From: a bacterium
GTDB taxonomy: Bacteria > JAHJDO01
Length of the DNA stretch: 64,000 bases
Reading direction: 5' to 3'
NCBI GenBank assembly: GCA_043824255.1
Contig: JBDRTG010000034.1
Span: forward strand, 1,631 to 65,630
Below, one piece after another: positions 29,132-38,453 of the stretch. Below the pieces are notes generated by a model that was given only the letters and a program-made list of their open reading frames with translations, was not told the origin of the DNA and did not search any database. Position 1 is the first letter of the stretch, and the number at the start of each line of letters is the position of its first letter. Made by a program: the position numbers and the translations under genes.

Positions 29132-29154
29132 TCAAATAAAAATGGGAGGTTATT

Positions 29155-32037
29155 ATGTATTACAGAAAAAGATATATGGATTGGGTTGGTGCTCTGGTTT
29201 TTTGTTCTATCATATTGGGGACGGTATTTTGCAAAGCGGAGAATCAAAACTTAGTGAAAAATCCAAGTTTTGAGGATGGACTCTGGGGCTGGAAAATGAA
29301 GCTCAGTGGAGATATAGCAGGTCGTGAAGACGACTTTATTTTCGAGACAACAAAAGAGGAAACAATAGATGGTAAATACTGCGTAAGAATGGTGTGGCCA
29401 GAAAAAATCCCCTGTGAGAATAGTACATCGCATCTTATTCAGAGAATAGATAAAGAATTTAAAAAAGGAGAAAGATATCGATTCAGTTTCCATGCAAAGT
29501 ACACGCTTCCAAGATATCCGAAGACCAACTATAAGATTTGTCGTTTAAGTTTCAAGAAATTGCAGGGAGGATTCAAGAATATAGACTTCAGAGAGAATAT
29601 AGCGTCATCTGGCTGGAAGAAATATAGCCTTGATTTTACAATAGAAAATGATGCAGAATGTGTGTATGTATACTTTTTTTCTCGTGTTAATGGTGAGACT
29701 ATATTAATTGATGATGTAAAACTTACTAAGATCGAAGAAGTTGAAGTAAAAGAAAAGAAGAATCCTGTAAAGAGTAGCAGTTATGCCGATATGCAGTTTT
29801 TTAAGTCTAGCCACAGCTCTGTTTCCTTCAAGGAATTACCTGATAAGTTGTTGTTTGCAAATTCCCATATTGGTCTTGGTTTTTACAGCAAAAACTATGG
29901 TTTTGCCCAATCCAGCATGTATAGTGTTGATAAGGATACAGACTTTTTGTTTCAAGATTTTCCGAAAGACAGGGCTCTCTGGCAGATAGTCTTAAGACGC
30001 GATAAGGGGAAAGATTCCGGAGAAATAATTTTGGACAATTTCAATCCTTCAGTTACCTCCTATAAGAGGGAAATAAATAATGACTGTAGCATCTTACATC
30101 TTTATTGGAAAGATCTAGGTGTTGCGGGAAAAAATGGTGCTCTGGATGTTGAAGTTACAGTCACATTGCAAAAAGATAATCCGTTATCCTTTTGGCGTAT
30201 CAATATTCAAAACAGGAGTAAAGTATACGGTATATGGCAGGTATTTTTCCCTATTATAAAAGTGGCTTCGATAGATGAAACTCCTGAAGATGACTATTTT
30301 ATGTTCTGCAAGGACCGCGGCAGACTCATTAAGAATCCCTATAATGCCCCAAAGGGTTTCAGGCATGGTTTGCATGTCGATGGAAGTTTTCCAGGCACAC
30401 TGGATATGCAATTTCAGGCTCTGTATGATGAATCCGGTATAGGTTTATATTTAGCAGCTTATGATGACAAATATTATTTCAAACGTTTTAGAGCAATACA
30501 AGATTCTGAAAACAATACAATAGAATTTAAATTTGGACATAATCCACCCAATATGGGTTATCCAGATGAAAATTACAGTTTACAGTACGATATGGTAATA
30601 GGAGTATTCTCAGGTGACTGGTACGATGCATGCCAGATCTACCGCAAATGGGCGATAAAACAACCATGGTGCAAAAAAGGTCCCTTAATTACAAGAGAAG
30701 ACATTCCCACATGGTATAAAGAAGCACCTGTGATGCTTAAAAACAACTCACCTGGTGGAGAGCCAGCAATTGCTTTAAACAGGGATCATTTCTTAGAATT
30801 TTTAGAATTTACAGGTGTTTCATTACCATCCATATGGTATGAATGGCCTAAATGTATTCCAGCTATGACTGCTTTTCGTATTGTTGGAGGTGGGACTACT
30901 CATAACGGCAACTATCCTAAAATTTCTTCCATTCCAGGTTTTGCCGAAGCATGCAAGACTATATCTGAAGCAGGAGGTTATCCTTCAGCATATGTCTGTG
31001 CAAGCATCTATGACCAGGGTCGTAACAATAATGCGCCTTATGCTAAATGGGCAGAACCATATGTCTGTAGGGATGTTAATCTAAAATTGATGTATTATCC
31101 AAAATTGCCAGTATGGCTGATGTGTACATCCGCTGAAGAGTGGCAGAACAGGATAAAAGATATATGTGTTGCGTTGGTAAAAAATGAAAATGTCAAAGGA
31201 ATATATCTGGATACACTTGATGGTGGAGGACCGCACTGTTTTAATACAAGCCATGGGCACTCTCATGGCGGAGGAAACTATAGAGGTTTGGGGGAAAGGA
31301 AACTCGCCAAGAAGGTTCGAGATGCTATAAAATCAATAGATCCTAAAGTTTTCATTACAGGTGAAAATCCAGCTGATTTTATGATTGATGTAATAGACGG
31401 GATGTTATACTCATATACCTATTTTCCCGGATTTATTCCTGTCCCGATGTTCGCTACTGTGTATAATGATTATATCCCAAGATATGGTAGGACGGCGCAT
31501 TTTTTTAATAAGGATTCGTTTTATTGGGAAACTGGATCTCTTTTTGCCGAAGGAGCACAAATGGGAAGGATGCGTATTGACACAGATTCTATAACTGAAC
31601 CAAAATATAAAGAAGAAGCAACGTTTCTCAAAAGACTAATTAACTATTATAAAAAAGAAGTAGGGGGTAATTACCTTTGCTATGGGCAGTTACTTAGACC
31701 AATAAGATTTTCAAAGCCTGATACTTTGCCCGTAGCATCATTTAAATTTGAAAGAAAATTTGAAGAAGAAGTTAAATTAAAAGCACTTTTTGGTGGTGTG
31801 TTTAAAAGTGCTACTAATGAAGATATATGTATTTTTATTGTAAATGCTTCTAATAAAAAGGTGGAATTTAGTTTCAACTTGGATTGCAAGAAGTATAATG
31901 TTCCATCTAATAAAGAGGTAAAAGTATGTAAGGTATCCGAAACCGGGGATCGAAAATCTCTTAAAACCTGTGGGGAGATTTTTGAATATTCTGATACAAT
32001 AGGTGCTCGTGACATTATTATGTTAGAATTAAAATAA
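29155..32037 (+). CDS. Large secreted putative glycoside hydrolase (N-terminal CBM4/9/22-like beta-sandwich; C-terminal TIM-barrel-like domain of unknown family)
   Basis: 960 aa with SD GGGAGG and a signal peptide. The N-terminus (NLVKNPSFEDGLWGWK) is typical of CBM_4_9. The C-terminal region contains IYLDTLDGGGPHCFNTSHGHSHGGG. The family assignment is uncertain. Confidence 0.5.
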   Translation: MYYRKRYMDWVGALVFCSIILGTVFCKAENQNLVKNPSFEDGLWGWKMKLSGDIAGREDDFIFETTKEETIDGKYCVRMVWPEKIPCENSTSHLIQRIDKEFKKGERYRFSFHAKYTLPRYPKTNYKICRLSFKKLQGGFKNIDFRENIASSGWKKYSLDFTIENDAECVYVYFFSRVNGETILIDDVKLTKIEEVEVKEKKNPVKSSSYADMQFFKSSHSSVSFKELPDKLLFANSHIGLGFYSKNYGFAQSSMYSVDKDTDFLFQDFPKDRALWQIVLRRDKGKDSGEIILDNFNPSVTSYKREINNDCSILHLYWKDLGVAGKNGALDVEVTVTLQKDNPLSFWRINIQNRSKVYGIWQVFFPIIKVASIDETPEDDYFMFCKDRGRLIKNPYNAPKGFRHGLHVDGSFPGTLDMQFQALYDESGIGLYLAAYDDKYYFKRFRAIQDSENNTIEFKFGHNPPNMGYPDENYSLQYDMVIGVFSGDWYDACQIYRKWAIKQPWCKKGPLITREDIPTWYKEAPVMLKNNSPGGEPAIALNRDHFLEFLEFTGVSLPSIWYEWPKCIPAMTAFRIVGGGTTHNGNYPKISSIPGFAEACKTISEAGGYPSAYVCASIYDQGRNNNAPYAKWAEPYVCRDVNLKLMYYPKLPVWLMCTSAEEWQNRIKDICVALVKNENVKGIYLDTLDGGGPHCFNTSHGHSHGGGNYRGLGERKLAKKVRDAIKSIDPKVFITGENPADFMIDVIDGMLYSYTYFPGFIPVPMFATVYNDYIPRYGRTAHFFNKDSFYWETGSLFAEGAQMGRMRIDTDSITEPKYKEEATFLKRLINYYKKEVGGNYLCYGQLLRPIRFSKPDTLPVASFKFERKFEEEVKLKALFGGVFKSATNEDICIFIVNASNKKVEFSFNLDCKKYNVPSNKEVKVCKVSETGDRKSLKTCGEIFEYSDTIGARDIIMLELK

Positions 32038-32100
32038 CTGAGCAGTCTACTTATAAAACTTAAGAGGAGATAAACTCATGAGACGATTAAGGAACATGTT

Positions 32101-32108
32101 TGGTTTCA
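32101..32108. repeat. 8-bp direct repeat TGGTTTCA at the IS junction (left copy)
   Basis: Identical 8-mers at 32101-32108 and 33526-33533 bracket the insert. This is either a target duplication or a shared core sequence. Confidence 0.8.
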
Positions 32109-32362
32109 ACTATGATTTTCTGTGTGTACTAAAAAATCTTCACATAACAATTTCACAACTTTTTAATGTAGTATTTCATAATCTCAAAACCTCTCAATGG
32201 TCGCAATCAACTATCCGCGGTCAAGAGCCGCACGAGAACAAATACGCCTGCAGCAGGCCTTATTCACGCTATCGAGCTTTACGGCTTGGGCCTTATGCTC
32301 ATAAAAGCACTCAAGGTCACTGCTGCAGGTGTAATCCTAGAGAGTATGAAATATTTTCATTA
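32109..32362 (-). other. Conserved 3' non-coding end of IS copy B (candidate guide/bridge-RNA region)
   Basis: It lies downstream of the transposase stop. It aligns with 1028-1281 of copy A as conserved blocks, with variable patches at, for example, 32148-32159. Confidence 0.4.
32112..32124. repeat. Subterminal inverted repeat of IS copy B (3' end): ATGATTTTCTGTG
   Basis: Its reverse-complement partner is CACAGAAAATACAT at 33513-33526, matching 13 of 14 positions with one indel. Copy A has the same sequence at 1266-1278. Confidence 0.7.
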
Positions 32363-33451
32363 TTAAGCCGCCCTTTCCGTTTTTTCTTTATCTTTATTAA
32401 TAAAGTCTTTATTAAAGGCAATATTGTTTTTAGCCATAGCCCAGCTCCAGACAAGAAGCTTTCTGGCAATAGCGCAAGCAGCCTTTTTCTTACCGGCTTT
32501 CCTGCTAATTTTATTAAATATTTTTCTGATAAATTCGCTGTGTCTAATAGCAACCCAAGCAGATTGTTGAAGAGCCCATCTAAGATTTGGAGGACCTTGT
32601 TTATTAATTCTTCCGTGCCTGCAGGAATCACCGCTTTGAAAGACTCTGGGAGTAAGACCGGCAAAAGAGGCGATTTGTCCAGACGTTTGAAATCTGGAGA
32701 AATCGCCGATCTCTGCGATAATAGTATACGCAGCTACATCACCAATACCTTGAATTGTTTGAAGGAGTTTCATAAGAGGCTGATAACCCGCCTTATTAAT
32801 AAGGTCAAGAATTTGTCTTTCAATATCAGAGACATCTCTTTCAAAAGAAATAATCTGATCAGTAAGTTGTCTGAGCTGAAATTTATGGATATCAGAAGTT
32901 TTGTTTTCAAAGCCTCTGATCCAGCGAAGAGCATGATGAGCGTCAAGAGTTTTTGGCCCTGGAAGGTTTTCTTTAAGGGTAATACGCCTGAATCTATTTT
33001 TAGAGCAAGCGAGAGAACGGGCAGTTTGATGACGATGTCGAGTAAGTTCTCTGATAGGTCTGAGGTTATTGTCGGGGACAAAGACAGAGAGCTTACTATT
33101 ATGAGTAATTTCACTGGAAGCAAGAAGTCGCGCAATAAGTCTGGCATCTCTGGAGTCAGTCTTAGGGTCCCTGCCAGCATAACGCCTGACTTCAACAGCA
33201 TTCAAGAGATAGATATCAGAAGCAAGAGGGCTGACCAGATCCCAGAACCAGTGATAGAAGCCAACAGCCTCAACAGCAACTGTGCATGGATGAGGAAGGT
33301 CAGCAAAAAAGGCAGAGACTTTGTTAACGCATTTACAGTGAATTTTAGTAATCTTCGCTTCCCTATAAGGGTCATTAGAAAGAGAATCAGTTACAGCAAT
33401 AGTCATAGAATCCTTATGAAGATCCACACCAGCGTACGTAATTGTATCCAT
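32363..33451 (-). CDS. IS110 family transposase
   Basis: 362 aa. The N-terminal DEDD domain begins [15 protein letters not shown]. The C-terminal motif is [42 protein letters not shown]. An AGGAGG SD lies upstream. Confidence 0.95.
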
Positions 33452-33512
33452 TCTTTTGCCTCCTGTTTTAAGGTTAAATTACCTGTTTATCGTTTTCGCC
33501 ATTTTATCCTAG

Positions 33513-33526
33513 CACAGAAAATACAT
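33513..33526. repeat. Subterminal inverted repeat of IS copy B (5' end): CACAGAAAATACAT
   Basis: This is the inverted partner of 32112-32124. Confidence 0.7.
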
Positions 33527-33533
33527 GGTTTCA
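33526..33533. repeat. 8-bp direct repeat TGGTTTCA at the IS junction (right copy)
   Basis: Identical to 32101-32108. Confidence 0.8.
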
Positions 33534-34189
33534 CCTTGATAGAGCTTTTGGTTGTGATTGCAATAATCGCGCTTCTCGCGTCAATGCTTTTGCCTGCTTT
33601 GATGCAGGCAAGGGAGATGGGGAAAAGAACAAAATGCCTTAGTAACCTGAGACAATTAGGCATGGCTATCCAGATGTATGTCGATGACTATGATGGTTGG
33701 TTCCGTCCATATTATGTCAGTACATGGAGTGATTACAGGTGGAGATATTGGCCAAATTCTCTTGTTTGTCCGGGTTATATAAAAAATCCTGATGTATTTT
33801 ATTGTCCTTCTCTGGCGCCATTTAATGGTAGTAATGTGAATTCTAAATGGAATGGAGCTTATTTCGACGCTGTTCCCCTAACTTATGGATTGAGGAGATG
33901 GGGTATAGGTGATGAGCCTATTTTCAAGATAGAGAATCCGTCAGCTTATTTCATTCTGGTAGATAGTGTATTAGATATTCCAGGAAATGCAGAGCATATG
34001 CTACAGGTCTACAATGTTGATGACGCTGGTCAAGCTGTTCATGTTCGGCATAATGAGAGGGCAAATACTTTATTTGCTGACTGGCATGTAGAGGCGAAAG
34101 AAGAAAGCTATTTTACTGATTTGGGTTATGATGTGTATCCATGACTCATTTAACCTTCAAAGAAATTTAACTAAAATATGAGGCTGAAA

Positions 34190-35434
34190 ATGACAGTTAA
34201 AGTGGGAATAATAGGTACAGGTGGTAGAGGAATCGGTTTTATAAGACATATAAATGAACGCAAGGATGCTCTTATAACTGCATTGTGTGATCCGAATCAT
34301 GTGCGTATGAAGAAAGTTGCAGAATTAAAGATTGAAGGTGTTCCCTTATGTATCCACAAGCCGCAACTTTATACTACTATAGGGGATATGCTAAGTTCTG
34401 AAGAGTTGGATGCGGTTATAATCACAAGTCCTGATTATTGCCATGAGGCTAATGCAATTGATGCTTTAGAAAAAGACATTTTTGTGCTTATAGACAAACC
34501 GCTTGCTACCACTACAGAGGGATGTATGAATGTACTTAAGGCAGCTAAGAAATCTAAAGCTACTGTTATGATAGGGTCTAATCTACGTCATGATCCAACA
34601 TTAATGAAGGTTAAGGAAATTGTCTCCAAAGGGGATCTGGGACGAATATTCATGATAGAGAACAGAGAATTCTACGATGGCGGGAAAACATATCTTGCGC
34701 GCTGGAATGGAAAGCAGAAGTACAGCGGTGGATTATGGGTTCATAAAGGAACTCATGATTTTGATATTTTTAACTGGTTAAATCAGGGTGGAAAGCCTCT
34801 CAGAGTCTCTGCATTTGCAGAAAGAAGTGCCTTGAGAAAAGAGGAAATCCCATTCAAAATTAAACCTAAAAAACCAGTTGGGCTAACCTGTACAGAATGT
34901 AGTTATAGAGATATTTGTCCTGATTTTGTTGCCCGAAATACTAAATTATGGGGTAGAGAAGCACAGGCAGTTGATAAATACGCAAAGGATCTTTGTATTT
35001 ATACTTCAGATGCTGATGTTTATGATAATGGTATCGCAATTGTAGAATATGATAATGGGGTTAGGGCTTCACATCTTGAATGTTTTGTAACTTCTTTATC
35101 AGATAGGCTATATACCATTGTTGGAACTAAAGGACAGCTCTCTGCCAGCTTACATGATAGAAAGATCGAAATTCGACCACGTTGGGCAAAAGATGTTACT
35201 GCAACTACAATAGAAATTCCTAAGGTAAGGGGAGGTCATGGTGGAGCTGATACTGGATTAACAGAGCGTTTTTTGGAAGTGGTGAGGGAAAAAAGGGAAC
35301 CTTCTTCCTCGCTTATTGATGGTACATTTTCTGTTGCGATAGGGGAGGCTGCAGAACACTCATGGCGCGAACATCGAATGGTTGAAATATCAGAAGTTCT
35401 GGATGTAAATAACAATCTCCTTAAGAAAGGATGA
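34190..35434 (+). CDS. Gfo/Idh/MocA family oxidoreductase
   Basis: It has the N-terminal Rossmann motif VGIIGTGGRGIG and the EKP-like motif (IDKPLA). The start at 34190 is preferred because GAGG lies 6 nt upstream; the ORF is open from 34178. Confidence 0.8.
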   Translation: MTVKVGIIGTGGRGIGFIRHINERKDALITALCDPNHVRMKKVAELKIEGVPLCIHKPQLYTTIGDMLSSEELDAVIITSPDYCHEANAIDALEKDIFVLIDKPLATTTEGCMNVLKAAKKSKATVMIGSNLRHDPTLMKVKEIVSKGDLGRIFMIENREFYDGGKTYLARWNGKQKYSGGLWVHKGTHDFDIFNWLNQGGKPLRVSAFAERSALRKEEIPFKIKPKKPVGLTCTECSYRDICPDFVARNTKLWGREAQAVDKYAKDLCIYTSDADVYDNGIAIVEYDNGVRASHLECFVTSLSDRLYTIVGTKGQLSASLHDRKIEIRPRWAKDVTATTIEIPKVRGGHGGADTGLTERFLEVVREKREPSSSLIDGTFSVAIGEAAEHSWREHRMVEISEVLDVNNNLLKKG

Positions 35435-36504
35435 GCACAATAATGACTCCAAAGGAAAGAGTTGAAGCAGTACTTCTTTCTCGTCAGGCAGATCATGTGC
35501 CTTTTACAGTTTATGAGAATAAGATTCCACAGTGTGAATGTGAAAGAGAGCTGAGAAATGAGGGATTGTGTATAGTAAATCGCATAAAGGTTTTTAAAAC
35601 TGAAACACCTGATGTAAAGACTCAGAGTATTCACTGTATTGATGAGAAGGATGGTGTCTCAAAAATCAAGACTGTGTATAAAACTCCTCATGGAGATCTT
35701 TCTACTATAAATGTTCCTGCAGGATTTACTACATGGCATGAGGAGCTAATTTTTAAAACTCCTGATGATTACAAAGCAATCGAGTTTATGATTAGAAACA
35801 GACAATATAGAGCTGACTATGAGCCAGTCGTAAAACAGATGAAGTTAGCAGGAGGCGATATTATTTTCAGGGCAGGGATTGGATACGAACCCATGCAGGA
35901 AATAATTCACTCTATCATGGGGATTGAGGTTTTTTCCCTTGAATGGATGGACAACAGAGATGAAATAATGAAATTGTATGATGCTCTTGTGGAAGATAGA
36001 AGGAAGATATATCCAATAGTAGCTGAGTCTCCTGTGCTTCATGCAAATTATGGAGGCAACGTTACACCTGAAATAGTTGGTTTGGAACGTTTCAAAAAGT
36101 ATTATGTGTCCCATTACAATGAATGCGCAGAAATTATGCACAAGCATGGAAAGCTGTTGGGGACACATCTTGACGCAAATAATAAGCTACTAGCTGATGC
36201 TGTTCGGGAGACTGATCTTGATTATGTTGAAGCTTTTACTCCTCCGCCTGACTGCGACTTAAGTGTTGAGAAAGCATTGGAAATATGGTCTGAGAAGAAA
36301 TTATGGATAAACTTTCCATCATCAGTCCATCTTTCAAGCATAGAAGTTATTGAAGATACGATGCGAAAGATATTAAAGGAATCCGGTGATGGCACAAGAC
36401 TTATTGTTGGTATTACAGAAGACGTTCCAGAAGATCGCTGGCAGGAGAGCTTTTCAGCTATTGTAAAGGTCTTGAATACAGATGGAATGTTGCCTCTTTC
36501 CTAA
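35431..36504 (+). CDS. Uroporphyrinogen-decarboxylase (URO-D)-like family protein of unknown specificity
   Basis: 357 aa. The N-terminal PKERVEAVLLSRQADHVPF and the overall pattern resemble URO-D/MtaA-like TIM barrels. It overlaps the upstream gene by 4 nt. Confidence 0.45.
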   Translation: MSTIMTPKERVEAVLLSRQADHVPFTVYENKIPQCECERELRNEGLCIVNRIKVFKTETPDVKTQSIHCIDEKDGVSKIKTVYKTPHGDLSTINVPAGFTTWHEELIFKTPDDYKAIEFMIRNRQYRADYEPVVKQMKLAGGDIIFRAGIGYEPMQEIIHSIMGIEVFSLEWMDNRDEIMKLYDALVEDRRKIYPIVAESPVLHANYGGNVTPEIVGLERFKKYYVSHYNECAEIMHKHGKLLGTHLDANNKLLADAVRETDLDYVEAFTPPPDCDLSVEKALEIWSEKKLWINFPSSVHLSSIEVIEDTMRKILKESGDGTRLIVGITEDVPEDRWQESFSAIVKVLNTDGMLPLS

Positions 36505-36593
36505 AAAGTTTGTCCTAGGATTCTCTGTTGTCTTTTTACAATGTGTATGCTAACATTCGCGGTATAATTTAAATAGGCATAAGGAGCGAAGAA

Positions 36594-38453
36594 TTGAGCA
36601 AATCCAAATTTAATAAACCCAAATTAAACAAATTTAATAAAACATTAGCTATCTGGCTTGTGCTTGGAATAATAGTAATTTTCTTTGTCCAGTTCTCGCA
36701 AATGCAGGGTAAGAGTACAAAAAAGATTGTATACAGTCAATTCATAGCAGATATTAATGCTGGCAGTGTGAAAAATGTTGAAATAGCAGGTAAGAATATT
36801 TCAGGACAATATGTCACTGGGGATAAATTCACGACATATGCAATAGAAAATCCAGATTTATGGAAGTTTCTAAAAGAGCATAATGTTGAGGCAAAAGGGA
36901 AACCGGAGACAAGTGTATGGCAACAACTAGTAGTAGGCACAATTCCATTTTTATTATTTATAGGCTTTCTGTGGTTCTTTGTATATAGACAGATGCAAGC
37001 TGGTGGCAAGCAAGCATTTTCCTTTGGTAAAAGCAGAGCCAAGATGATAAAGGAAGATAGACCTAAAATAACTTTTAAAGATGTAGCAGGTATAGATGAA
37101 GCAAAAGAGGAACTACAGGAGATAATAGAATTTCTAAAGACCCCAGAGAAATTTCAGAAATTAGGTGGTAAGTTACCAAAAGGAGTATTGTTGATGGGGC
37201 ATCCAGGCACAGGAAAGACGCTCTTGGCAAAGGCAGTTGCTGGAGAGGCAAAATGTGCTTTTTTCAGTATAAGCGGTTCTGATTTTGTAGAGATGTTTGT
37301 AGGAGTAGGGGCATCACGTGTGCGGGACTTATTTGAGCAGGGAAAAAGGAATAGTCCGTGTTTGATTTTTATAGATGAGATTGATGCAGTAGGTAGGCAG
37401 CGCTTTGCTGGTCTTGGCGGTGGACATGATGAAAGAGAACAGACCCTAAATGCTTTACTTGTGGAAATGGATGGATTTAATACAAAAGAGGGTGTAATTT
37501 TAATTGCTGCAACAAATCGGCCCGATGTGCTGGATCCAGCACTTCTGAGACCCGGTAGATTTGATAGAACTATTATGGTTGAGATGCCAGATATCAAAGG
37601 CAGAATGGGTATATTGAAAGTTCATACAAAGAACCTTATACTTGGCAAAGATGTTGCTCTTAATGTTGTTGCAAGAGGGACGCCTGGTATGTCAGGTGCA
37701 GATCTGGAGAACCTATGTAATGAAGCTGCGATTGTTGCATCAAGAAAGAATAAAAGCAAGATTGGAATGTCTGATTTTGAGGAAGCCAGAGATAAAGTGA
37801 TGATGGGAATAGAGCGAAAAAGTCTTGTTATTAGTGATGAGGAAAAGAAGATTATTGCCTACCATGAAGCTGGGCATACATTGGTTCAGTATTACTTACC
37901 TGATTCAGATCCAATTCATAAAGTTTCAATTATTCCAAGAGGAAGAGCTCTGGGCCTGACTCATATATTGCCTGAGAAGGATAAGTACATTGAGAGCAAA
38001 TCGCATTACATGAGTAATCTAGTAAGTTTGATGGGAGGAAGAGCTGCAGAGATTTTAGTGTTTAATAATACATACACAGGTGCTAGGAATGATATAAAGA
38101 TTGCTACAGAGCTTGCCAGACAAATGGTATGTGAATGGGGAATGAGCGAAAAACTTGGGCCTCTTTCATTTGGCCGCAGGCATAATCAGGTTTTTCTTGG
38201 AAGAGATATAACAGAAGAAAGAGAATATAGCGAGGACACGGCAAAGAAGATAGATACAGAAGTTCGCAATCTGGTTGAAAGTGCATATAAACAGGCAGAA
38301 GACACTATTAAGAAGAAACGGGACAAATTGGAGAAACTTGTAAAGGAATTGCTGGAGAAAGAAGTAATTGATAGAAAGGATGTAGAGGCTATTCTTGAAG
38401 GAAAATCTGTAAAGAAGAAACCAGTAAATAAATCTCGTAAAAAGAACTCTTGA
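36594..38453 (+). CDS. ftsH: ATP-dependent zinc metalloprotease FtsH
   Basis: 619 aa with a TTG start after AAGGAGCG. Motifs: Walker A GHPGTGKT, Walker [10 protein letters not shown]-type ([11 protein letters not shown]), the SRH, and the zinc motif HEAGH. Confidence 0.95.

Follow-up and report, generated by a model that had tools for sequence, protein, structure and literature searches.

We analysed a 64,000-nt stretch of contig JBDRTG010000034.1 (assembly GCA_043824255.1; hereafter the window), in which a prepilin-like gene is interrupted by an insertion sequence of the IS110 family. The interrupted gene is preceded by the Shine-Dalgarno sequence AAGAGGAG (32062-32069, plus strand), read directly and identical in an uninterrupted allele (locus L099, described below). 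Its ATG lies at 32078 and opens a 5' fragment (32078-32107, plus strand) encoding a 10-codon prepilin leader that ends in GGT TTC, the target-derived Gly-Phe codons (32102-32107); in P0137, the homologue encoded at L099, TLMELL follows immediately after this same leader. A second GGT TTC begins at 33527 and is followed by ACC TTG ATA GAG (as read over 31900-34300). These codons begin the 3' part of the gene, which extends from 33533 to a stop at 34144 (plus strand) and is 99% identical to P0137. The host gene is split, in frame, between its Gly-Phe and its Thr-Leu-Ile-Glu codons, and the intervening 1425 bp, or 475 codons, constitute an IS1111-type insertion sequence (32108-33532, minus strand), delimited by the exact difference from the empty site, whose boundaries can slide within the shared GGTTTC(A). 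The list of open reading frames (ORFs) contains a continuous ORF of 688 amino acids on the plus strand (32078-34144) that consists of the host leader, 475 element codons read antisense to the transposase, and the pilin-like body.

Removal of the 1425 bases yields a rejoined protein of 213 amino acids. This protein matches N_methyl (PF07963, 29.2 bits against a cut-off of 21.2) and the prepilin cleavage/methylation model TIGR02532 (25.8 bits, cut-off 16.3), and the Shine-Dalgarno sequence upstream of the first part, as well as the prepilin leader and N-methylation motif recognized after rejoining in an initial annotation of this DNA, are confirmed. The host leader, MRRLRNMFG|, is of the class III signal peptide type: it is hydrophilic and ends in Gly, and is followed by Phe, a hydrophobic stretch and Glu at position +5. 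The score against DUF1559 (PF07596) is barely above the cut-off (24.1 against 23.3 bits) and concerns residues 35-64 only; homologues of the rejoined protein at about 40% identity do carry PF07596. An H-X9-DG box had also been assigned to the C-terminus. The box actually reads H-X9-D-W, and the H-X9-DG family model is absent from the NCBIfam matches of the rejoined protein.

A protein search identified the uninterrupted homologue P0137, which has 213 amino acids and is 99% identical to the rejoined protein over 100% of its length. It is encoded at L099 (GCA_018812485.1, contig JAHJDO010000020.1), where NCBI annotates it as a prepilin-type cleavage/methylation protein, and it has the same neighbours as the interrupted gene in the window, namely, on the upstream side, a protein of about 960 amino acids with CBM_4_9 and DUF6259 and, on the downstream side, a GFO_IDH_MocA oxidoreductase. 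The sequence of the empty site is ATGTTTGGTTTTACCTTGATGGAGC (...ATGTTTGGTTTT ACCTTGATGGAGC...), and subtracting it from the window leaves an insert of exactly 1425 bp. In-frame insertion at a prepilin-type G-F|T motif, as proposed in the initial annotation, is borne out both by the sequence and by this allele, and the suggested comparison with an uninterrupted allele favours that interpretation. DNA identity between the window and L099 shifts sharply at the element, from 88% in the left flank (29145-32108, in the gene of about 960 codons) to 99% in the right flank (33534-36600). Close to the insertion point, TTC (at both junctions) and ATA of the window correspond to TTT and ATG in the empty allele. 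The change in similarity could mark a recombination boundary or the repair of a mismatched core, and the TTT/TTC difference could be a strain polymorphism or, again, mismatched-core repair.

The assignment of the insert to the IS110 family is confirmed by its transposase (362 amino acids; 33451-32363, minus strand), which matches the NCBIfam model 'IS110 family RNA-guided transposase' (NF033542, 244.7 bits, cut-off 140) as well as PF01548 (DEDD_Tnp_IS110, 53.6 bits) and PF02371 (Transposase_20, 98 bits). Upstream of this recombinase gene lies a short non-coding end of 81 nt (33452-33532, minus strand). The long non-coding end downstream of it (32108-32362, minus strand) extends 252 nt beyond the stop codon at 32363-32365 and carries the guide RNA discussed below. 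Both ends are free of stops in the pilin frame. A few bases inside each junction is a sub-terminal inverted repeat. The transposase-distal repeat, ATGATTTTCTGTG (32112-32124, plus strand), pairs with the reverse complement of 33513-33526; the transposase-proximal one, CACAGAAAATACAT (33513-33526, plus strand), has ATGTATTTTCTGTG as its reverse complement. ATGATTTTCTGTG and ATGTATTTTCTGTG match at 13 of 14 positions with one indel, and relatives carry homologous repeats (TATGTTGCTC, CTATGTAGGG). The IS1111 subgroup is defined by sub-terminal inverted repeats of 7-17 bp together with a longer non-coding region downstream of the transposase (PMC11187229, PMC11208160). With such repeats and with 252 nt downstream against 81 nt upstream, the element belongs to the IS1111 subtype. 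An exact-sequence lookup of the window transposase found it not to be on record, and a search of a plasmid collection with the element DNA gave no match.

The element had been described as bracketed by an 8-bp repeat that encodes the G-F-T junction. TGGTTTCA is indeed present at 32101-32108 and at 33526-33533, with a spacing of 1425 bases, and spans that junction. However, the right-hand copy is constant within an element lineage (CATGGTTTC), whereas the left-hand copy differs from one host gene to the next at codon third positions (GGGTTT, GGATTC, GGCTTC, GCGTTC and others); therefore, the right copy is the element's and the left copy the target's. The copies also differ within single insertions (in L007, GGGTTT on the left and GGTTTC on the right), so the repeat reflects similarity between donor and target rather than duplication of the target. 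What the element carries is a mimic, CAT GGT TTC (His-Gly-Phe; 33524-33532, plus strand), which is constant whatever the host gene and rebuilds the G|F cleavage site immediately before the host Thr codon. It is identical in the window, L007, L012, L017 and clade C; clade B has ATA GGC TTC. In all clades the left junction follows the pattern TTY|A(A/G/T)CTATG and the right junction the pattern TTC|ACN. From this comparison the crossover zone is placed at 32108, an A preceded by TTY in donor and target alike, with Y-A as the likely core, and strand crossover is predicted to take place within TTY-A. The position and orientation of the insertion were the same at all loci compared, without a true target-site duplication.

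The initial annotation had further proposed that the conserved pilin-leader motif is what the element targets, and had suggested comparing the flanks of other copies. Scans of a genome collection and a metagenome collection provided 86 further loci for this purpose; the genome collection holds species representatives, the parent genome not being among them, and matches there were at most 51% identical. A 97%-identical transposase (P0001) in GCA_030652805.1 sits inside gspG of a type II secretion operon (L007/L008, one and the same element, 93.6% identical to that of the window). The gspG junctions read MSKIKVQMSKKGF|NYDF...AQKIHGF|TLIELMLVVIIIG..., that is, AQKIHGF|TLIELMLVV on the right, and further intact pseudopilin and assembly genes of the same operon lie downstream of the occupied gspG in L007. 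A 246-nt remnant of the window element adjoins a third DUF1559 paralogue (P0127/L098), and a relative with 81% identity lies next to LamG-domain and DUF1559 bodies (L009, L010). In total, about 35 loci or relatives from the two collections, with transposases 35-97% identical, are located at GF|TL(I/V)EL in unrelated genes encoding GspG, type IV pilin-like, DUF1559 and LamG proteins. Almost every locus with at least 35% transposase identity and enough flank has HGF|TL(I/V)ELLVVIAII on the other strand at a distance of 60-270 nt before the transposase start, as against 0 of 47 more distant relatives (27-32% identity) with an HGF|TL(I/V)EL flank. The junction cannot be due to chance, because it recurs identically in dozens of independent contigs. 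The gspG copy, the DUF1559 remnant and relatives down to about 35% transposase identity, with the same junction in different genes, thus support the conserved coding motif as the true target of the element. Within the 64-kb window, the occupied site is the only match to the target motif GGNTTYACNYTNATHGARYT. Sister lineages (L023, L024, L029, L035 and L040) are found at another N-terminal membrane-anchor motif, (H)(G/S)F|S(L/I)R(T/E)LLI.TT..AV, likewise on the opposite strand upstream of the transposase.

The long non-coding end appears to encode the RNA by which these sites are chosen. A bridge/seekRNA with two internal loops is predicted at 32195-32335 (minus strand) from RNAalifold covariation. 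The clade A fold (11 sequences, including the window) has 30 pairs, 12 of them with compensatory changes, and the homologous region of clade C (13 elements) has 44 pairs, 24 of them compensatory; Rfam at gathering thresholds reported only four tRNAs over the window, and no bridge RNA family. On the 3' side of the donor loop (loop 2), GGAUAGUUGAUUGC (32203-32216, minus strand) contains AUAGUUGA, which corresponds to the element end CATAGTTGA at 32113-32106. This putative donor guide, of the general form AUAGNUGA (N = U, A or C), changes with the transposase-distal end of the element, and the two agree in 17 of 18 elements: AUAGUUGA is found with CATAGTTGA in clade A, AUAGAUGA with CATAGATGA in clade B, AUAGCUGA with CATAGCTGA in clade C and AUAAAUGA with CATAAATGA in L033. 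GACCUUG, which lies on the 5' side of loop 1 and equals ACC TTG, was considered as a third guide and dropped, since RNAalifold pairs it with an invariant UAAGG that extends the basal stem. Clade C does not have GACCUUG in the loop, and invariant pairs prove nothing either way.

The other loop (loop 1) appears to read the target. Its 3' side in the window is AUAGCGUGAA (32272-32263, minus strand), the complement of which, TTCACGCTAT, equals the Phe-Thr-Leu codons. In relatives this guide is a 9-10-mer complementary to the sense strand of TTC ACN CTN and varies with the flank, the pairings being GAGGGUGAA-TTCACCCTC (L027, 9/9), GAAUGUGAA-TTCACATT (L031) and, through a U-G wobble, GAGUGUGAA-TTCACGCTC (L032, L037-L039). 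Relatives retargeted to xF|SLRTLLI.TT show GAGACUGAA-TTCAGTCTC (L040, 9/9) and CAGGCUGAA-TTCAGCCTG (L029, 9/9), so that a switch of guide accompanies the switch of target from TTCAC... to TTCAG.... The 5' side of the loop, AGUGCUUUUA (32311-32302, minus strand), resembles the sense strand of GGYTTYA, the Gly-Phe codons plus A. Clade C carries CCGGUUUUA in its place, and the U residues of this guide fall at codon third positions, where they allow G-U wobble. Relative to the transposase, the match to the top strand lies 5' of the match to the bottom strand, as has been reported for IS1111 seekRNAs and opposite to the arrangement in IS621 (PMC11187229, PMC11208160). As the covariation shows, the site is in all probability chosen by bridge/seekRNA guides that read the Gly-Phe-Thr-Leu codons, with synonymous changes tolerated through wobble. 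The specificity also appears to be programmable, the sister lineages with a changed guide at xF|SLRTLL being apparent cases of natural retargeting.

Unexpectedly, the frame of the pilin gene is open throughout the window element. Over the transposase region there are 0 stops in the pilin frame against 23 and 44 in the other two frames, and in the non-coding ends 0 against 4 and 9. The pilin frame is codon-aligned antisense to the transposase, so it can be open only if the transposase gene does without TTA, CTA and TCA. None of these occurs among its 30 Leu and 25 Ser codons (P about 4e-9), the comparison being the 38 other ORFs of at least 250 amino acids in the window (37.7% GC), in which TTA and CTA make up 35% of Leu codons and TCA 22% of Ser codons; every one of those ORFs has 5-52 such codons. 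The same layout is present in all 13 complete copies listed (12 distinct, L007 and L008 being one element), which belong to deeply diverged clades. Their lengths of 1425, 1425, 1527, 1449, 1404, 1473, 1503, 1509, 1536, 1557, 1473, 1461 and 1476 nt are all multiples of three, and there are 0 in-frame stops from the host leader (for example MDPRKRTGF|SYVG..., MTHARHSTRRAF|NYVG... and MNAQSSRRRPHSWGF|SYVE...) to the host Thr codon.

It could be argued that this layout is an unselected by-product of base composition and a codon-aligned antisense frame, as 11 of 47 GC-rich transposases that do not target the motif are also free of TTA, CTA and TCA. However, the window element has a GC content of only 40% and still contains none of the three codons, and in this clade 18 of 24 transposases are free of them, against those 11 of 47 non-targeting relatives (Fisher P = 4e-5). 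Taken alone, the non-coding ends, which are under no codon constraint, also have 0 stops in the pilin frame, whereas the other two frames have 41 and 63; moreover, the lengths of all 12 distinct complete elements are divisible by three. The counts of codons, lengths and stops in the non-coding ends exclude chance and base composition as the cause, and we regard the by-product explanation as scarcely credible. Rather, the element appears to be built to keep the host frame open over its full length. The initial annotation had suggested that the motif would offer the element safe landing sites; that idea now seems stronger than it was when proposed, since the frame of the host gene appears to be maintained across the whole element.

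The architecture of the element suggests how the host gene may be spared. Ribosomes starting at the host ATG would read 475 element codons into the pilin body, and the element polypeptide would act as an oversized cytoplasmic leader that is cut off by the prepilin peptidase. Cleavage at the ...H-G-F|T-L-I-E-L site rebuilt by the element would leave the normal mature protein, so that the insertion would be nearly neutral, which would in turn explain the spread of the family through the prepilin-like gene superfamily. The rebuilt site, AQKIHG|FTLIE, preserves Gly at -1, Phe at +1 and Glu at +5, and element polypeptides end in (K/R)-x-x-H-G-F directly before the host T-L-I-E. Prepilin leaders are hydrophilic, terminate in Gly or Ala and vary in length, some being 'very long'; they do not leave the cytoplasm, and the peptidase has its active site on the cytoplasmic face (PMC10191384). 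An N-terminal extension would therefore never need to cross the membrane. No segment of the element polypeptides has a 19-residue Kyte-Doolittle average above 1.6 (a pilin anchor has about 3), and the polypeptide of the window element has a net charge of +49; given these two properties, it would be expected to act as an oversized leader. We also considered a start codon inside the window element and rejected it, the nearest in-frame ATG being 39 codons before the Thr codon and without a ribosome-binding site.

Alternatively, the long antisense ORF could be a gene of the element's own, encoding a regulator or accessory factor, with continuity into the host gene being incidental. Gene callers do predict antisense proteins of about 390-455 amino acids (P0124, P0125, P0128, P0131 and others). 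However, the element-encoded polypeptides contain no Pfam domain, and their composition merely tracks GC content, being rich in Ser, Lys and Phe at 40% and in Gly and Ala at 65%. The parts that derive from the non-coding ends are constant neither in length (252-387 nt) nor in sequence, and the window element has no internal ribosome-binding site with a start codon. Furthermore, the frame is phased with the host at both junctions in 12 of the 12 distinct complete elements, which an internal gene would not require. A gene proper to the element is therefore improbable.

A different arrangement is seen in the subclade nearest to the window element (L012, L013/L093-95, L017, L034 and L097; 47-55% transposase identity), in which the antisense frame does contain stops. 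In these elements the pilin strand of the transposase-proximal end has an outward TTGACA, a poly-G tract (G9-G16), a -10-like box, a ribosome-binding site and an ATG, followed by a Lys-rich leader that ends in SQKEHGF|T (MSAPFKKSLSQKEHGF, MPVNPKKSVSQKEHGF, MFKKMVSKSKNIVSQIQHGF or MFREKVISRKSHGF), with the inverted repeat supplying the codons for the last part of this leader. Comparison between elements gives an identity of 0.79-0.97 inside the element, which falls to 0.55-0.73 in host sequence, the break lying exactly at TTC|AC; the replacement leader therefore belongs to the element. The poly-G tract is 11, 16 or 9 G long at L012:100-250, L097:1530-1686 and L034:540-812, respectively (minus strand of each). 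Its length alters the spacing between -35 and -10, as in phase-variable fimbrial promoters, and an assembly error in the homopolymer is possible.

These self-starting elements bear on the possibility that an open frame only keeps ribosomes on the host transcript, so that Rho-dependent polarity and mRNA decay are avoided and downstream genes protected, while the fusion itself is non-functional or degraded and the gene is in effect knocked out. Polarity would matter in L007, where the element lies in gspG upstream of intact operon genes, and the frame is also open in L035, which sits at a motif without a known cleavage site. Yet many of the targets, including the gene in the window, look like single genes with unrelated genes next to them. 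Avoidance of polarity also leaves unexplained both the in-frame rebuilding of a peptidase-type site, (K/R)xxHGF|T, and the ribosome-binding site, ATG and Lys-rich leader with which the closed-frame subclade is equipped, and the three elements with Ala-Phe or Pro-Phe ends are among those that have lost the open frame. Because the two designs both deliver a complete prepilin, we argue that rescue of the host gene, and not merely avoidance of polarity, is the selected trait. Protection of the transcript alone is unlikely in our judgement, although it is the strongest of the competing explanations.

It is also conceivable that the element is a reversible on/off switch that inactivates the gene by insertion and restores it by precise excision, as described for IS492, the properties of the frame being secondary. 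IS110-family recombinases excise precisely as circles (PMC11208160, PMC11187229), and occupied and empty alleles of the same gene exist in related genomes, as in the case of the window and L099. A switch, however, would need neither a stop-free antisense strand of 1.4 kb nor a length divisible by three, and both are strongly maintained. Switching would be compatible with a spared host gene rather than exclusive of it, and as the sole explanation of the layout it seems quite unlikely.

Several observations weigh against the proposed combination of RNA-guided insertion and a spared host gene. Described prepilin leaders are tens of residues long, and we know of no precedent for one of 470-520 residues (475 in the window). 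A polypeptide of this size may be costly, degraded or prone to aggregation, and its cleavage by the peptidase is something that we purely infer. The open frame is not universal: there are 34 stops in L012, 28 in L017, 11 in L067 and 1-2 in L019, L022 and L033, the last three of which end in Ala-Phe or Pro-Phe instead of Gly-Phe. TTA, CTA and TCA are likewise absent from the transposase gene of L035, which is retargeted to xF|SIRELL, a motif without a known peptidase site. The selected trait may therefore be tolerance of an N-terminal cytoplasmic extension, with cleavage a bonus at prepilin sites. In addition, about a quarter of unrelated IS110 transposases in high-GC clades lack TTA, CTA and TCA by chance. 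With respect to the guides, AUAGCGUGAA of the window pairs imperfectly with its own site, TTCACCTTGA, forming 5 bp, a mismatch at the third position of the Thr codon and 3 bp (a G-T wobble, A-T and a U-G wobble). A left-hand donor guide, sought on the 5' side of loop 2 (CGUAUUUGUUCUC; GAUCUCAUGGG in clade C), amounted to a 5-nt CAUGG match in clade C only. Finally, the contigs behind most loci are short, come from metagenomes and break off at the repeat, so that assembly chimeras could account for some pairs of junctions, and the left flank shared by L009-L011, GTGCTTTTA, is not a leader and nevertheless matches the 5' target guide at 8 of 9 positions.

Taking these points together with the evidence above, we assign a probability of roughly 0.6 to RNA-guided insertion of an IS1111-type element at the pilin leader by guides that read codons, with the host gene spared by in-frame readthrough and removal of the leader. 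More tentatively, at somewhat under even odds, this clade may have evolved removal of its insertion at the protein level: an antisense-encoded leader of 470-520 residues would be cut at the His-Gly-Phe carried by the element and leave the mature protein unchanged. Such an arrangement would be an intein-like counterpart assembled from a transposon and a host signal peptidase, with a sister design that brings its own promoter and leader.

The transposition machinery itself is that of the known RNA-guided IS1111 type. The known IS110-family targets cited in the initial annotation are non-coding repeats, namely repetitive extragenic palindromic (REP) sequences, attC sites and the terminal repeats of transposons. 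The seekRNA elements of the IS1111 group (ISEc11, ISPa11, ISKpn4 and IS4321/IS5075; PMC11187229, PMC11208160) share with the window element a DEDD transposase with PF01548 and PF02371, sub-terminal inverted repeats and a structured RNA in the long non-coding end downstream of the transposase. They also share two RNA segments that match opposite target strands and overlap at the crossover, and insertion in a single orientation at a single position of a repeated target. Of such targets, these two papers mention only those of IS4321 and ISPa11 and, in titles that they cite, Tn21 terminal repeats and attC sites. The window element differs from this group in that its target is a protein-coding motif read as codons rather than a non-coding repeat, and in that it carries a coding mimic, His-Gly-Phe, and has a whole antisense strand that forms an open frame phased with the host; neither the mimic nor the phased open strand turned up in the two papers or in our literature searches. 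The bridge recombinases of the IS621/IS110 group similarly recombine a circular donor with a target under the guidance of an RNA with two loops, each having a left and a right guide that include the core. In the present element, however, the RNA is at the opposite end, the guides follow the reverse strand order relative to the transposase, and the element has long inverted repeats; transposase identity is low, and no Rfam family of the IS621 type matched.

Other systems resemble parts of this arrangement. The Piv invertase of Moraxella (references 14 and 23 of PMC11208160) is a DEDD recombinase related to IS110 transposases that inverts segments of type IV pilin genes. Recombinases of the same superfamily thus act inside type IV pilin genes in both cases, and Piv swaps bodies behind a constant N-terminal part; unlike the element described here, Piv is a domesticated invertase that acts on fixed sites and is not mobile, and we know of no guide RNA or translated insert described for it. 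IS110 members of the IS900/IS901/IS902 type insert between the ribosome-binding site and the start codon. Their targets likewise overlap 5' expression signals and are used in one orientation, but lie upstream of the coding sequence, and to our knowledge no in-frame translation has been described for them. The Rickettsia palindromic elements (RPE), reportedly described by Ogata et al. in 2000, are said to be selfish repeats located in frame within coding genes and translated. These, too, are mobile DNA that persists in ORFs by keeping the frame and being translated with the host protein. However, RPE are non-autonomous, about 100-150 bp long and retained in the mature protein, whereas the elements considered here are autonomous, 1.4-1.56 kb long and read antisense, at a place where a host peptidase could remove the extra polypeptide. 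The logic is also that of inteins and self-splicing introns, which are selfish elements in conserved gene sites whose harm is avoided by removal after transcription or translation; here, removal would make use of a host signal peptidase at a site rebuilt by the element rather than of splicing chemistry of its own. Full-text searches of a single literature collection returned nothing that links IS110 or IS1111 elements to prepilin or DUF1559 genes, and no description of an insertion sequence with a stop-free antisense strand phased with the host. We likewise found no insertion sequence reported to spare its host by an open reverse strand combined with a carried copy of a cleavage site. There is a substantial chance that this means of sparing the host is new in kind.

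If our interpretation is correct, a conserved coding motif, and not only non-coding repeats, can serve as the target to which RNA-guided IS110/IS1111 elements are tuned. This could explain how they persist and multiply in the large prepilin-like families of Planctomycetota, Verrucomicrobiota, Omnitrophota and relatives, even in gspG, and it would predict that prepilin peptidases process leaders hundreds of residues long. For genome engineering, these elements would offer natural bridge RNAs with overlapping coding constraints and a natural case of retargeting from Phe-Thr-Leu to Phe-Ser-Leu. They also set a trap for annotation, since gene callers alternate between the transposase and a giant 'pilin' fusion.

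The latter effect is visible in public records, where 'proteins' of about 390-455 amino acids are the antisense of IS110-type transposase genes (P0124, P0125, P0128, P0131, P0133, P0135 and P0136) and where P0134 is a fusion of an antisense part ending in EGV| with a DUF1559 body. The 11 distant relatives without TTA, CTA and TCA, which are 27-32% identical and have no prepilin flank, are L044, L051, L053, L054, L060, L071, L072, L076, L079, L083 and L086, and some of these have long antisense frames. In L028 (2-3265) the antisense frame is open for 1088 codons, and at its right junction, RPLHGF|ISVGAVRQ, a further copy begins; the His-Gly-Phe mimic of one element appears to have served as the landing site of a second, the two forming an in-frame tandem. 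L009, L010 and L011, from three samples, share a left flank with small ORFs and a DeoR regulator and then continue into different pilin-like bodies (LamG, DUF1559). This pattern could be due to shuffling of pilin bodies by recombination between copies, to off-target insertion or to assembly chimeras. It hints at shuffling of the kind carried out by Piv, with the reservation that it could be an artefact of assembly, and we set it aside as evidence of shuffling given that short-read paths through a 1.4-kb repeat are unreliable.

Joining the ends of the window element in a hypothetical circle (32106-32113 with 33500-33533) would, by eye, place TTGAAA, a 17-nt spacer and TAGGAT upstream of the transposase; in the integrated element the -35 position reads GTGAAA. 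Such a junction would fit the promoters known for circle-forming elements, and in clades B and C TTGAC(A/G) is located 10-14 nt from the distal end. Elsewhere in the window, and unrelated to the element, are a cluster of three tRNA genes at 44809-45046 and an isolated one at 15415-15489.

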